Of a DNA stretch of 64,000 nt, positions 24,743 to 63,318 are shown one piece after another. Where the stretch lies: positions 202,051 through 266,050 of the forward strand of contig CAWAVC010000025.1 in NCBI GenBank assembly GCA_963785325.1. Reading direction: 5' to 3'. The position numbers and the translations under genes were made by a program. Origin of the DNA: an uncultured Bacteroidales bacterium. GTDB lineage: Bacteria > Bacteroidota > Bacteroidia > Bacteroidales > FEN-979. A model generated the notes under the pieces. The model searched no databases. It was not told where the DNA came from and saw only the letters and a program-made list of their open reading frames with translations. Numbering within the stretch: the stretch's first letter is position 1; each line of letters starts with the position of its first letter.

Positions 24743-26903
24743 TTAATCTTTGATTATCTTTCCCACTTCAACCGTTCTATCATTGGTTAATCGCACAAAA
24801 TAAACTCCACTTTGCAAATTGCTGATATTTATTTTTGTTTCAGGCTCAGTGATTTGGCGGTTCAATACCTCCTGACCGCTTAAGTTCAGAATGGATAATC
24901 GGCTTTGGGTATGAGTTTCTGATGTTTCGATGGTTACAAAGCCGGATGAAGGGTTGGGGTGAATGTTCAATTTGCCGGAGTTAAATGGTAATACAATGAA
25001 ACCCGCCGGATAACCTCCTCCGTTTGTAGTTTTTAAAATTGTTCCATTTTCTCCGACTGCATATCCTGTATTGGCATCAGTAAAATAAACTGAAGATAAA
25101 CTATTAGTTGTTCCGCTTGTTAATAAACTCCAGTTTGTGCCTCCATCAACGGTTTTAAAAATTCTTCCAATAGAATTGGACCAATTTATATTACCACTCA
25201 TAATATATCCTGTATTGGCATCTGTAAAGTATACTGAATTAAGCCAATCAGTTGTTCCGACCGATGAAGTAGTCCAGGTTTCACCTCCATCGATGGTTTT
25301 TAATATAATTCCTGTAGAAGAAGCAGACCCAATTATACTATCGCCTACCACATACCCTGTATTGGAATCAGTAAAATATATGGAATTTAAAAAATCATTT
25401 GGATCGTTAAATGCAACTGTCCAGTTTGCTCCTCCATTGATAGTTTTTAAAATGATCCCATAATTTACCACTACATACCCTGTTTCAGAATTAGTAAAGT
25501 AAACCGAATTAAAATTTTCACTTGAATCGCTATATATAATTGTCCAGTTTATGCCCCCATTGATAGTTTTTAAGATGGTCCCATTTTGCTGAGAACAATA
25601 ATTACCACCTGTCACATACCCGGTACTGGCATCGGGAAAGGAAAGTGAATATAAATCATTAGAAGTTCCGCTCGATAAAGAAGTCCCAGGTTTCACCTCC
25701 ATTGATGGTTTTCAAGATTGTTCCACTATCTCCAACTGTGTATCCTGTATTAGCATCGATAAAGCGAGCCGAAGATAAACTATTAGAAGTTCCGCTCGTT
25801 AAAGAAGTCCAATTTTCACCTCCATTGATGGTTTTTAAGATTGTTCCGCCTGTACCTATTGCATACCCAGTATTGGCATCGGCGAAGAAAACCGAAGATA
25901 AATAATTATAAGTTATTCCAGTTGATAAAATGGTCCATGTGGTACTTCCATTAATGGTTTTTAAGATAGTTCCACCGTTACCCACTACGTAGCCTGTATT
26001 GACATCGGTAAAGTAAACTGAATATAAACCGTTAGAAGTTCCGCTCGATAAAGAAGTCCATGTTTCACCTCCATTGATGGTTTTTAAGATGGTTCCGCTA
26101 TCGCCTACCGTATAACCCGTATTAGCGCCGATAAAGTAAACTGAAAATAAATCAATAGTGGTTCCGCTCGTTAAAAAAGTCCAAGTAGTGCCACCATTAA
26201 TGGTTTTCAGGATGGTTCCATGATTCTCCACTATATATCCTATACTGGCCTCGGTAAAGAAAACCGAAGATAAATCAACATACTGGTAACTCGGTAATAT
26301 AGTGGAAGTCCAGTTTGAACCTCCATCGATAGTTTTTAAGATGATTTCAATTGAATTAGACCCAACCAGACTATCTCCAACAACAAAGCCTGTATTGGCA
26401 TCCGTAAAGTAAACTGATAATAAAGGAGTAGTTGTTCCGCCCGACAAAGAAGTCCAGGTTTCACCTCCATTGATGGTTTTTAAAATTGTTCCACTATCTC
26501 CTACTGCATACCCTGTATTGGCATCGGTAAAGAAAACCGAAGATAAACAATTAGTTGTTCCGGTTGATAAAACAGTCCATGTTGTACCTCCGTCAATGGT
26601 TTTTAAAATAGTTCCGTTTTCCGGAAAATTATAATTACCACCTACTGCATAACCTGTATTTACATCTGTAAAGTAAACTGAAAATAAATAATCAGAAGTT
26701 CCGCCCGATAAAGAAGTCCAGGTTTCACCTCCATTAATGGTTTTCAAAAGTGTTCCACTTGTACCTACTGTAAACCCTGTATTGGCATCGATAAAGAAAA
26801 CTGAAGATAATGGATTGCCTTGTGGTAAGGGGTTTTGCCATATCCATTGTGAAAAAGCGGCAAATGGAAAAAAGGAAAAGAAAATGCAGATAACTTTTTT
26901 CAT
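24743..26903 (-). pseudogene. secreted BNR/Ycf48-like repeat protein with a T9SS sorting domain, split by a 1-nt indel (or a sequencing error)
   Basis: ORFs 25659-26903 (signal peptide, repeats GTILKTINGGETWTSLSSGTSN.LYSVYFTD) and 24743-25702 (the same repeats plus a Por_Secre_tail). The repeat phase is restored by removing one C from CCC at 25685-25687. Confidence 0.75.
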
Positions 26904-27074
26904 AAATTTTTCTTACTGTACTTAACTTATTCTAAATGCCATGAAAGGTAAGAAATTAGTTTCTAAAGTCAAGAATAAAGTGGACAAAAACAGATTTTCC
27001 CGTCCTCTTTATCGTTCCCTGGAAAAAAAACGCCGTAAGTGATTAGCTTACGGCATGATAAATTGAAATGTATG

Positions 27075-27159
27075 TACCCGGAGCGGGAATTGAACCCGCA
27101 CGGCCGCAATGGCCACAGGATTTTAAGTCCTGCGTGTCTACCAATTCCACCATCCGGGC
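27075..27159 (-). tRNA. tRNA-Leu (anticodon UAA), long variable arm, no encoded CCA
   Basis: The reverse complement GCCCGGATGGTGGAATTGGTAGACACGCAGGACTTAAAATCCTG...GCGGGTTCAATTCCCGCTCCGGGTA folds as a class II cloverleaf. Confidence 0.9.
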
Positions 27160-27204
27160 GTATGAAACGTGATGCGCCCGCGGAAAGAAGGTTTGAGAAA
27201 AAAA

Positions 27205-27228
27205 ACCCTCTTCAGAGGGTTTTACTTT
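27205..27228 (-). terminator. hairpin AACCCTC-TGAA-GAGGGTT flanked by A/T runs (possibly bidirectional)
   Basis: Seen between the two tRNA genes. T-run follows on both strands. Confidence 0.35.
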
Positions 27229-27233
27229 TTTAG

Positions 27234-27306
27234 AGCGAAAGACGGGATTCGGACCCGCGACCCCGACCTTGGCAAGGTCGTGCTCTACCAGCTGAGCTAC
27301 TTTCGC
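27234..27306 (-). tRNA. tRNA-Gly (anticodon GCC)
   Basis: The reverse complement GCGAAAGTAGCTCAGCTGGTAGAGCACGACCTTGCCAAGGTCGGGGTCGCGGGTCCGAATCCCGTCTTTCGCT is a 73-nt cloverleaf. Confidence 0.9.
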
Positions 27307-27390
27307 GTTTACATTGGGTTTGCAAATTTATTAAAATTTTGAAAAACACAAGGATTTTTATTGGTTAAATCTTATTTTAATGTGCCGGAG

Positions 27391-27495
27391 TGAAAAGATA
27401 ATTTACGATTGGACAATGTTAATTTACGATTGGACGATTTCAGATTTCAGATTGAATCTTTTGATTGATGATTTACGATTGAAGTCAAGACGACT
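27391..27495 (+). repeat. AT-rich repeat patch (AATTTACGATTGGAC x2, GATTTCA x2, GATTTACGATTGAAG)
   Basis: Direct reading. Confidence 0.7.
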
Positions 27496-61544: not shown

Positions 61545-61730
61545 AAGTCATAAAGTCAAGAAGTCACAAAGTAACAAAGTGACAAAGTGATAAACGGACA
61601 AGCGGACAGGAGAAAATCGTGACGCGGAAATCGTGGGAAGTGAGAGGTGAGAGGTGAGAGGTGAAAAAGTGAGAAGTGAGAGGTGAGAGGTGAGAAGTGA
61701 GTGGTGAGAAGTGAGTGGTGAGATGTGAAA
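61545..61730 (+). repeat. mosaic array: AAGTCA(C/T)A octamers, CAAGCGGA, AATCGTGACGCGG, GGTGAGA/AGTGAGA
   Basis: Direct reading. Confidence 0.9.
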
Positions 61731-61848
61731 AAGGCTTTTCGGAGCAAGTTCAAGTTTTAGGTGTATTGTTGTATATTTGTACTAAAGTATAAAATTATAG
61801 CTATCGGATATTTGATAGATCTTCAGGATGAGATAATACTAAACAAAA

Positions 61849-62268
61849 TTGGCACTTCAAACAATTGACATTCCTAATCTGACTAAAATCCTGGAACAAC
61901 AGTTTCAAGAGATTTTATTTGCTTTTATTTTCGGTTCTGCGAAAGATGGATTAATCAGAACAGAGGGAGATGTCGATATTGCCGTGTGGATAGACGACCC
62001 CAAAAAAAAGATGGATTTGATACCGCGGTTAACAGGAATAGTGGAGTCAATAACTCAAGGCACACCGTGTGATCTTCTACTGCTTAATGAAGCCGGCAGC
62101 CAATTGGCCTTTGAAGCGCTTCAGGGGCAGCTCCTTTTTGTAAGGGATGAAGCGATGGACCTCTATTCAGGGTTTTATGCACAGACTTGCAGGGGGTATG
62201 AAGATGCTATAGGCTGGATGAAAAAACAACTTCAATACCGTGGATATGAAGTACAATGGGATCATTGA
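61849..62268 (+). CDS. MNT-type minimal nucleotidyltransferase (type VII antitoxin candidate)
   Basis: FIFGSAKDG...GDVDIAVW nucleotidyltransferase motif. TTG start. Overlaps the next ORF. Confidence 0.7.
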   Translation: MALQTIDIPNLTKILEQQFQEILFAFIFGSAKDGLIRTEGDVDIAVWIDDPKKKMDLIPRLTGIVESITQGTPCDLLLLNEAGSQLAFEALQGQLLFVRDEAMDLYSGFYAQTCRGYEDAIGWMKKQLQYRGYEVQWDH

Positions 62269-62650
62269 ATCGAAACTAAGAATTATCGAGCAGAAATTGG
62301 GAGAGATTGAAAGCTGGAATATTCAATCATTTGAACAGCTTAAAGAAAGTTCGTTATTGCAAAATGCCCTGGAAAGAGCCCTCCAGGTGAATATCGAAGT
62401 AATGATCGATATCAGCGAACGTATCCTTGCATTAAACAAGGAACGGCCGCTCCCCACAGCGCAGGATAATATCATCAGATTACAGGAGTCAGGAATTATA
62501 TCCACAAGGCCTGAATATAGTGAAATGGTAAAATTCAGAAACTTTATTGTACACCGGTACGAAAAAATTGACCTTGAAATTATTTATGGTATCCTGAAAA
62601 ATAAACTTTTCCTATTCAGGGAATTCATTAATGATATCAGAAAGAGTTGA
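62240..62650 (+). CDS. HepT/DUF86 HEPN-domain toxin candidate
   Basis: RNFIVHRY (the R-x4-H HEPN motif) near the C-terminus, about 130 aa. Confidence 0.7.
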   Translation: MDMKYNGIIESKLRIIEQKLGEIESWNIQSFEQLKESSLLQNALERALQVNIEVMIDISERILALNKERPLPTAQDNIIRLQESGIISTRPEYSEMVKFRNFIVHRYEKIDLEIIYGILKNKLFLFREFINDIRKS

Positions 62651-62689
62651 AGGGTTTGAAGTTTGGATTTCGGATATAGACATCTTGAA

Positions 62690-62955
62690 AAAGTCACAAA
62701 GTCACAAAGTCACAAAGTCGCAGAGTAAAAGGCGGACAGGTGAACAAGCGGACAAGCGGACGAAAAAGGTCACAAAGTGACAGAGTGACAGAGTGACAAA
62801 GTAAAAAAGCGGACAAGCGGACAAGCGGATAAGCGGACGAAAAAAATCACAAAGTCACAGAGTAAAAGGCGGACAGGTGAACAAGCGGACAAGCGGACGA
62901 AAAAGGTCACAAAGTGACAGAGTGATAGAGTGACAAAGTCACAAAGTAAAAAAGG
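62690..62955 (+). repeat. second higher-order repeat (two units of about 120 bp built from AAGTCACA/AGTGACAG octamers and CAAGCGGA)
   Basis: GTAAAAGGCGGACAGGTGAACAAGCGGACAAGCGGACGAAAAAGGTCACAAAGTGACAGAGTGA occurs twice. Confidence 0.9.
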
Positions 62956-62983
62956 GAAAAAAACAGTAAACAGTACTTAACAC

Positions 62984-63318
62984 TTGAAGATTGTAACGGT
63001 TATCGGGGCAAGGGGGCAGTTTATTAAGGCGGCAACTATATCACGGTTACGAATTCATGATTCTGATGTTGAAGAAATATTGGCCCATACCGGGCAGCAG
63101 TATGATCCGAATATGCTGGATATCTTTTTCGAGGAATTGAATATCCCACATCCTGATTTTAATCTGGGGGTGGTTCAGGTTCTCATGCTATTCAGACCGG
63201 TAAAATGCTAAAGGGCATAGAGACTATCCTCCTGGATAAAAAACCAGACTGGACACTGGTGTATGGCGATACAAATTCGACGCTTGGCGGAGCAGTTGCT
63301 TCCATGAATTTAAACTAA
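62984..63318 (+). pseudogene. 5' fragment (about 105 codons) of a second UDP-GlcNAc 2-epimerase gene, frameshifted and truncated
   Basis: MKIVTVIGARGQFIKAAT...HTGQQYDPNM. There is a frameshift at the G-run 63166-63170, then SGSHAIQTGKMLKGIETILLDKKPDWTLVYGDTNSTL..., ending MNLN*. By eye it is roughly 80-90% identical to 56845-57185. Confidence 0.8.

Follow-up and report, generated by a model that had tools for sequence, protein, structure and literature searches.

Frame breaks in conserved genes of an uncultured Bacteroidales contig are very probably consensus errors of noisy long-read assembly

Reductive genome decay with accumulation of pseudogenes is known from Mycobacterium leprae and recently host-restricted symbionts, and loss of mismatch repair gives insertions and deletions (indels) in homopolymer runs together with strongly transition-biased substitutions. 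Both were compared with the frame breaks found in conserved genes at positions 24743-63318 (38.6 kb) of a 64,000-nucleotide stretch (the window) of contig CAWAVC010000025.1 from an uncultured Bacteroidales bacterium. As in reductive decay, many housekeeping genes are frameshifted within a short stretch; unlike it, the affected genes are free of nonsense codons, in-gene deletions, insertion sequences (IS) and relaxed downstream constraint, and the lesions are not reproduced elsewhere. As in mutS/mutL-deficient hypermutators, mutS of the window is frameshifted, but homopolymer indels and transition bias are missing, and mutS of a same-species contig (L043, below) is without the lesion. A third system is the indel error of metagenome-assembled genomes (MAGs) made from Nanopore reads only, a problem measured by IDEEL (PMC9262707; MFD-LR catalogue, PMC12313526). 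The window is like these MAGs in that its indels are single-base, assembly-private and split conserved genes, that the organism's other assemblies have private indels of their own, at different sites, and that contig names and closest relatives point to Flye/Medaka assemblies; it differs in that the classic account stresses homopolymers, whereas the private indels of the window lie almost all outside them, are mostly insertions and are regionally clustered.

The frame breaks are very probably consensus errors of noisy long-read metagenome assembly, not gene decay. At 9 of the 10 covered loci the window indel was absent and the gene intact in independent contigs of the same population, which bore out the preference of the preliminary description for sequencing or assembly error; the artefact reading is correct for about 90% of the lesions.

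Frame breaks were surveyed over positions 24743-63318; the left part (1-24.7 kb) was surveyed as well. Frame switches were located by tblastn of intact open reading frames (ORFs) of relatives against the window and placed at base level by DNA alignment; one-base fixes were then made for each lesion, and ORF read-through and NCBIfam profile coverage were determined. The syntenic relatives (L001-L005, L010, L015) were loci of uncultured Bacteroidales MAGs of 70-84% nucleotide identity over ~27.8-53.7 kb of the window, recovered by scanning genomes with PFOR, which is intact in the window (38617-42153). The lesions, with gene coordinates, strand and lengths in amino acids (aa), were as follows:

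24743-26903 (-), BNR/YCF48-like T9SS gene: lesion at 25685..25687, a CCC run with one base too many (GG to GGG, gene strand); the 719-aa gene is split into ORFs of 414 and 319 aa; family members have 700-720 aa; homologue P0251 (718 aa) matches with residues 22-411 in frame -3 and 420-717 in frame -1, and internal repeat logic agrees.
27556-30226 (-), mutS: lesion at 28760, extra base GT[G]CCC (gene strand), outside homopolymer, private to the window; base absent in L043; corrected MutS of 889 aa covers TIGR01070 2-840/840.
34311-34857 (-; as open frame), folK: lesion at 34525, extra base TTC[G]AAG, outside homopolymer, private to the window; base absent in L040; corrected FolK covers TIGR01498 2-128/128.
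42295-44560 (-), mutS2: lesion at 42385, extra T, GATTA[T]TCTT, private to the window; last ~28 residues of the Smr domain lost; T absent in L040; corrected protein of 754 aa (homologues 750-778 aa).
45307-46853 (+), mmdA/pccB-like carboxyltransferase gene: lesion at 46131..46133, base missing after TTCCC, private to the window; base present in L040; corrected 515-aa protein covers TIGR01117 3-510/512.
50708-51692 (+), acyltransferase gene (PF13444): lesion at 51661, extra G that changes the last ~8 codons; uncorrected ORF 50708-51685; protein of 327 aa in L041, equal to the length of the corrected window gene.
~52180-52834 (+), engB/ysxC: lesion at 52747, extra A, CTG[A]AAT, private to the window; corrected EngB covers TIGR03598 (YsxC) 1-185/186.
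53016-53535 (+), upxY: lesions at 53228..53412, eight indels relative to L041 with neighbouring substitutions; corrected UpxY covers model positions 1-163/164.
54178-54524 (+), four-helix-bundle gene, copy A (PF05635/TIGR02436): lesion at 54486..54491, base missing at a T4 run (54487-54490); profile coverage 1-109/109 after correction, 1-85 before.
55711-56413 (+), sugar-phosphate nucleotidyltransferase (NT) gene: lesion at 55975, extra C, CTCCT[C]ATT, private to the window; intact 233-aa protein of L041 identical to the corrected window protein.
56845-57916 (+), wecB: lesion at 56898..56921, extra T at 56898, G/A substitution at 56902, missing A at 56914 and extra T at 56921; corrected WecB covers 1-363/366.
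62984..63315 (+), wecB remnant, the 5' part of a second allele, truncated to ~116 of 356 codons: base missing near 63171-63175, beside a G5 run.

Frame breaks had been listed for eleven loci, and all eleven proved to be true frame switches in the window, each no more than a few bases from the given position, by tblastn, DNA alignment, three-frame reading and read-through after one-base fixes. The ORF map held overlapping same-strand ORF pairs at every named locus, and Pfam model coordinates ran on across the pairs (MutS_IV 1-67 then 57-92; HPPK 1-78 then 80-116; Carboxyl_trans 2-252 then 256-491), were cut (Smr at model position 49/77; PF05635 at 89/106) or started late (NTP_transferase at 96; WecB at 7). 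A single reference protein spanned two window frames with contiguous query coordinates in tblastn for mutS (frame -1 to -2 at 28757-28770), folK (-2 to -3 at 34523), pccB/mmdA (+1 to +3 at 46125-46149), engB (+1 to +2 at 52748-52758) and the wecB remnant (+2 to +1 at 63172-63184); the breaks in copy A, NT, wecB and upxY were resolved by three-frame translations, paralogues and contig L041. Corrected MutS2, NT and BNR/T9SS proteins read through to one terminal stop at homologue-like length. The preliminary estimate of at least 13 frameshifts stood as regards the existence of the lesions and was too low as a count: the total is ~21 (at least 21) indels in 12 genes, with eight in upxY instead of three, three in wecB, and the additional site at 51661.

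The contigs used for comparison are independent contigs of the window's own population:

L041: ENA ERZ25039480 contig_38709; window 49368-64000; 99.45% identity, 52 substitutions, 26 gap openings.
L040/L043: ENA ERZ25039480 contig_42077; window 27557-47821; ~96% identity, 91 indels.
L042: Logan, run ERR11596056; window 56537-57922; 99.7% identity.
L126: Logan, run ERR11594402; window 56537-57922; 99.6% identity.
L128: Logan, run ERR11594402; window 53560-55354; 99.55% identity.

The frame-preserving state was found in these contigs for mutS (28760), folK (34525), mutS2 (42385), pccB (46133), the acyltransferase gene (51661), engB (52747), all eight upxY sites, NT (55975) and wecB (56898, 56914 and 56921). 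Gene calls of L041 were intact for EngB (211 aa), UpxY (169 aa), NT (233 aa) and WecB (356 aa); for wecB, L041, L042 and L126 (three assemblies, at least two runs) had one intact allele against the window. The comparison contigs had breaks of their own: L041 at 58475, where the 372-aa ORF of the window is intact, and by a private -1 at 63184; L126 by a private -1 (deletion) at 56962; and L043 by its 91 indels, which shatter PFOR, pccB and mutS at many positions that are intact in the window. When each assembly of a population has its own private frameshifts, this is the outcome expected of random consensus error, not of shared biology. Between 34525 and 39311 the window and L040/L043 were free of indels over 4.8 kb and had an identical 678-aa SppA, with about one indel per 200 bp elsewhere; error density inside such noisy contigs is strongly heterogeneous.

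Searches with MutS2 and WecB matched truncated proteins encoded by the window itself, P0001 (695 aa) and P0121 (338 aa). Both were seen solely on the source contig of 275,697 bp (NCBI and ENA), so that the frameshifts stand in the public record; intact WecB was found in two assemblies. The contigs have Flye-style names, and the nearest genomes were Microflora Danica Nanopore MAGs. Those MAGs come from a Nanopore-only procedure (Flye --meta --nano-hq, then a single Medaka round; PMC12313526), and Nanopore bins below ~40x coverage require short-read polishing (PMC9262707). A literature search for run ERR11596056 gave no match.

Two lesions were shared. That of four-helix-bundle copy A was common to all three covering assemblies (window, L041 and L128), the frame of this copy being set by paralogues B and C, which end ...KIES[IV]KMKL[LI]GLIKYLKNK; the frameshift of the wecB remnant at ~63172 was common to the window and L041, with residues 6-68 of L010 WecB matched in frame +2 and residues 73-116 in frame +1. 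This remnant is truncated irrespective of the frameshift. The shared lesions (T4 in copy A, G5 in the remnant) are the only ones that abut homopolymer runs of at least four. They are probably genuine, or at least reproducible: either small pseudogenes or systematic homopolymer miscalls of the same read type, and ordinary either way. Copy A and the wecB remnant are probably minor, ordinary pseudogenes of the variable capsule locus.

These two lesions, together with the truncation of the remnant and real strain variation in the capsule locus (tract 58300-59250, below), are what can be said for ordinary strain-level pseudogenes, by which some private indels, especially those of the capsule locus at 53-63 kb, would be real and the rest errors. 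This explanation is unlikely: upxY, NT and wecB were intact in L041, wecB was also intact in L042 and L126 (two further runs), and the upxY and wecB versions of the window are garbled by several indels each in a complex way, unlike the effect of one clean mutation.

The character of the indels did not agree with the homopolymer-type error, in frequent homopolymer context, that had been proposed. Among the 19 window-private indels (15 insertions, 4 deletions) none lay in a run of at least four in the corrected sequence (0/19), and 8 of the 15 insertions were unlike both neighbouring bases (those of mutS and folK, for example); by eye, no common sequence or methylation-type motif was seen among the listed contexts. 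In appearance the private indels are stochastic errors of the consensus rather than miscounted homopolymer lengths. Alignment of the window with L041 over 14.6 kb gave 29 indel columns and 52 substitutions. Outside the tract 58300-59250 there were 17 substitutions (8 transitions, 9 transversions), 8 of them within 12 nt of an indel, and these look error-like. The 950-bp tract itself, inside an ATPase-like ORF (58173-59291), had 27 substitutions (21 transitions, 6 transversions), enriched at third codon positions and giving 11 amino-acid changes; its sole indel was that at 58475, with L041 as the broken copy. It looks like genuine strain polymorphism or a recombination tract within the capsule locus. 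Identity to relatives on the two sides of the break was 87/90, 90/89 and 88% for mutS and 94/92 and 92/92% for pccB; no nonsense codon was found in any gene after one-base correction, and no in-gene deletion or IS insertion among the affected genes. The pattern bears the mark neither of decay nor of mismatch-repair loss.

A mutator lineage, in which a real mutS frameshift kills mismatch repair and the strain then gains real frameshifts in many genes, is very unlikely on these data, even with mutS and mutS2 both among the broken genes, indels private to the contig as strain-specific mutations would be, and a comparison made on assemblies instead of reads. Runs of at least four were spared by the private indels, and transitions and transversions were nearly balanced outside the tract; engB and folK are broken, EngB being a ribosome-biogenesis GTPase reported essential in model bacteria; at least three indels fall within 18-24 bp in each of upxY and wecB; nonsense mutations are missing and conservation is undiminished downstream; other assemblies carry equivalent private frameshifts in other genes; and the left 24.7 kb are untouched. 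It is highly improbable, in particular, that the contig represents a real environmental (sediment or soil) Bacteroidales strain with frameshifted mutS and mutS2 that gained the engB, folK and mmdA frameshifts at a very early stage, before any secondary decay, beside an intact sister strain; such a strain would be an environmental hypermutator or a dying lineage. A real mutator or decaying strain is left as a small residual possibility.

Programmed ribosomal frameshifting or transcriptional slippage, which would restore the proteins in vivo, has a negligible probability. The downstream frames remain open, and nothing else speaks in its favour; the breaks affect eleven unrelated genes with both +1 and -1 shifts and have no shared motif or slippery run, and the sites are absent from orthologues (single ORFs in L001-L005, L010 and L015) and from the same-population contigs. 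Sites so little conserved effectively refute it.

The preliminary description had singled out upxY as more like genuine decay, which was contradicted by the intact 169-aa UpxY of L041 (166.6 bits, model positions 1-163/164) and by a motif-scrambling indel cluster private to the window. Relative to L041, extra bases were located at 53228, 53231, 53245, 53296, 53322 and 53363 and missing bases at 53395 and 53412, i.e., eight indels with adjacent substitutions within 185 bp. Three of the insertions, in 18 bp (53228-53245) and net in-frame, turn LNTPGAVRYIW into LKKCPKRVRYMW; the L010 homologue of UpxY likewise reads PGVVRFI at this motif. Elsewhere in the window's UpxY, GPLKG has become GHLKG. 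The upxY region is a local consensus failure and the clearest artefact of the set. In wecB, three indels and a substitution within 24 bp (56898-56921), the whole cluster being private to the window, turn LLLHD into LLCMY, and the wecB remnant of the window keeps HD at that position; the truncated WecB P0121 is confined to the source contig.

No frame splits were found in positions 1-24.7 kb, as judged from relatives over 5.4-17.2 kb and from normal-looking hidden Markov model (HMM) coverage for the remainder. A metagenome scan with the aldehyde dehydrogenase gave one fairly close relative (79% aa identity), which shows 5.4-17.2 kb to be free of frame splits. Two suspicions in this left part were rejected: moaA (266 aa) is in frame throughout and simply lacks ~65 model positions, and the oadA-like ORF gave a single-frame match to its L044 orthologue. 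MoaA (18975-19775, +) matches TIGR02666 in two stretches with 267.8 bits (cutoff 284) and is a short variant, not a frameshift. Around 50-57 kb the private indels reach ~1.5 per kb, and indel density against L041 is highest there. The regional clustering may reflect local coverage differences or strain mixture, in keeping with a second haplotype of ~96% identity (L043) over part of the affected region; systematic miscalling of homopolymers would explain it less well than thin local coverage or a consensus of mixed strains. Between the frameshift-free left part and the frameshift-rich remainder stands an intact IS4-family transposase gene (22964-24196, -; NF033592 2-331/332); its site may be a coverage or haplotype junction of the assembly.

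Several points weigh against consensus error. The evidence consists of assemblies, not reads, and for each site taken alone a real strain-specific allele may exist; the contigs used for comparison are noisy themselves, L040/L043 being only ~96% identical; no same-species contig covers the BNR site (25686), for which the best identity in the homologue search was only 52-55%; and the platform of the window's contig is inferred. Indels outside homopolymers are atypical of textbook Nanopore error, and insertions outnumber deletions (15 vs 4), while Nanopore consensus errors are usually thought of as deletion-prone. A uniform assembly-wide error rate would not predict a left part of 24.7 kb without frameshifts, so that the artefact reading has to invoke local heterogeneity.

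Consensus error would account for the window in the following way. The source contig was most likely assembled from noisy long reads by a Nanopore-only procedure of the metaFlye/Medaka type. About 19 of the ~21 indels would be consensus errors of that assembly, in the form of isolated extra or missing bases, and the short garbled stretches would probably be consensus failure caused by low local coverage or by collapse of co-occurring strains. Gene callers would then split or truncate mutS, folK, mutS2, mmdA/pccB, engB, upxY, NT, wecB and the acyltransferase gene, and the BNR/T9SS protein would probably be split by the same kind of error; in the organism itself the genes would be intact. Directly observed were indels private to one assembly, and other assemblies intact at those sites with different private indels.

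The window also holds 48 heptanucleotide tandem arrays in many intergenic spacers (e.g., 2166-2730, 17197-17796, 36729-37214, 38232-38582, 51704-52190 and 57893-57985), some of which begin a few bases from a stop codon. The units are ACTGGGT/GGTACTG, GTGAGAG/GTGAGAA, TGGGTTC and AATGAAG; the arrays make up 7.4% of the window vs 0.6-3.4% in the relatives and call to mind the STRR heptamer repeats of cyanobacteria. The G-rich strand is on + for 93% of array bases, and the G>C skew is 0.10 overall and 0.051 outside the arrays; the strong skew of the + strand was rejected as an error signature, since it stems from these G-rich arrays. A 487-bp GTGAGAG array is identical in L041. A 259-aa ORF (51654-52433, -) was rejected as an artefact of the translated GTGAGAG array, its weak S-layer match (E = 1e-4) and shifted tblastn matches being repeat-derived. 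A composite tandem array (59373-60616 and 62690-62950; period 124-132 bp, ~9 copies) has a unit of nested (AAGCGGAC)n octamers, (GTGAGAA/G)n heptamers and an A-rich spacer, with spurious minus-strand ORFs; octamer runs AAAGTCAC and AAGCGGAC, related to this array, are found on the flanks of the wecB remnant.

Four paralogous genes of the four-helix-bundle/23S rRNA intervening-sequence protein (PF05635, TIGR02436) are present in the window (44766-45140, 54178-54524, 55256-55609 and 56435-56788), three of which lie downstream of upxY and alternate singly with capsule-locus genes. Region 60690-62650, also within the capsule locus and bounded by repeat arrays, encodes a RhuM-family protein of 284 aa and, after it, a toxin-antitoxin pair of the nucleotidyltransferase (Polbeta)/HepT-like kind (61849-62268 and 62240-62650).

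The broken frames are an ordinary finding and not a biological feature of the organism. Residual MAG errors may lie outside homopolymers and be strongly regional, so that correction confined to homopolymers would miss them. Were the frameshifts real, the window would offer an unusual view of an environmental lineage defective in mismatch repair; the evidence speaks against this. Mutator status, folate auxotrophy and capsule-locus inactivation should not be inferred from the record, and at 24.7-63.3 kb only four-helix-bundle copy A and the wecB remnant should keep a label of pseudogene, split or truncated gene. The genes mutS, mutS2, folK, mmdA/pccB, engB, upxY, NT and wecB, and probably the BNR gene, are to be read as intact in the organism.

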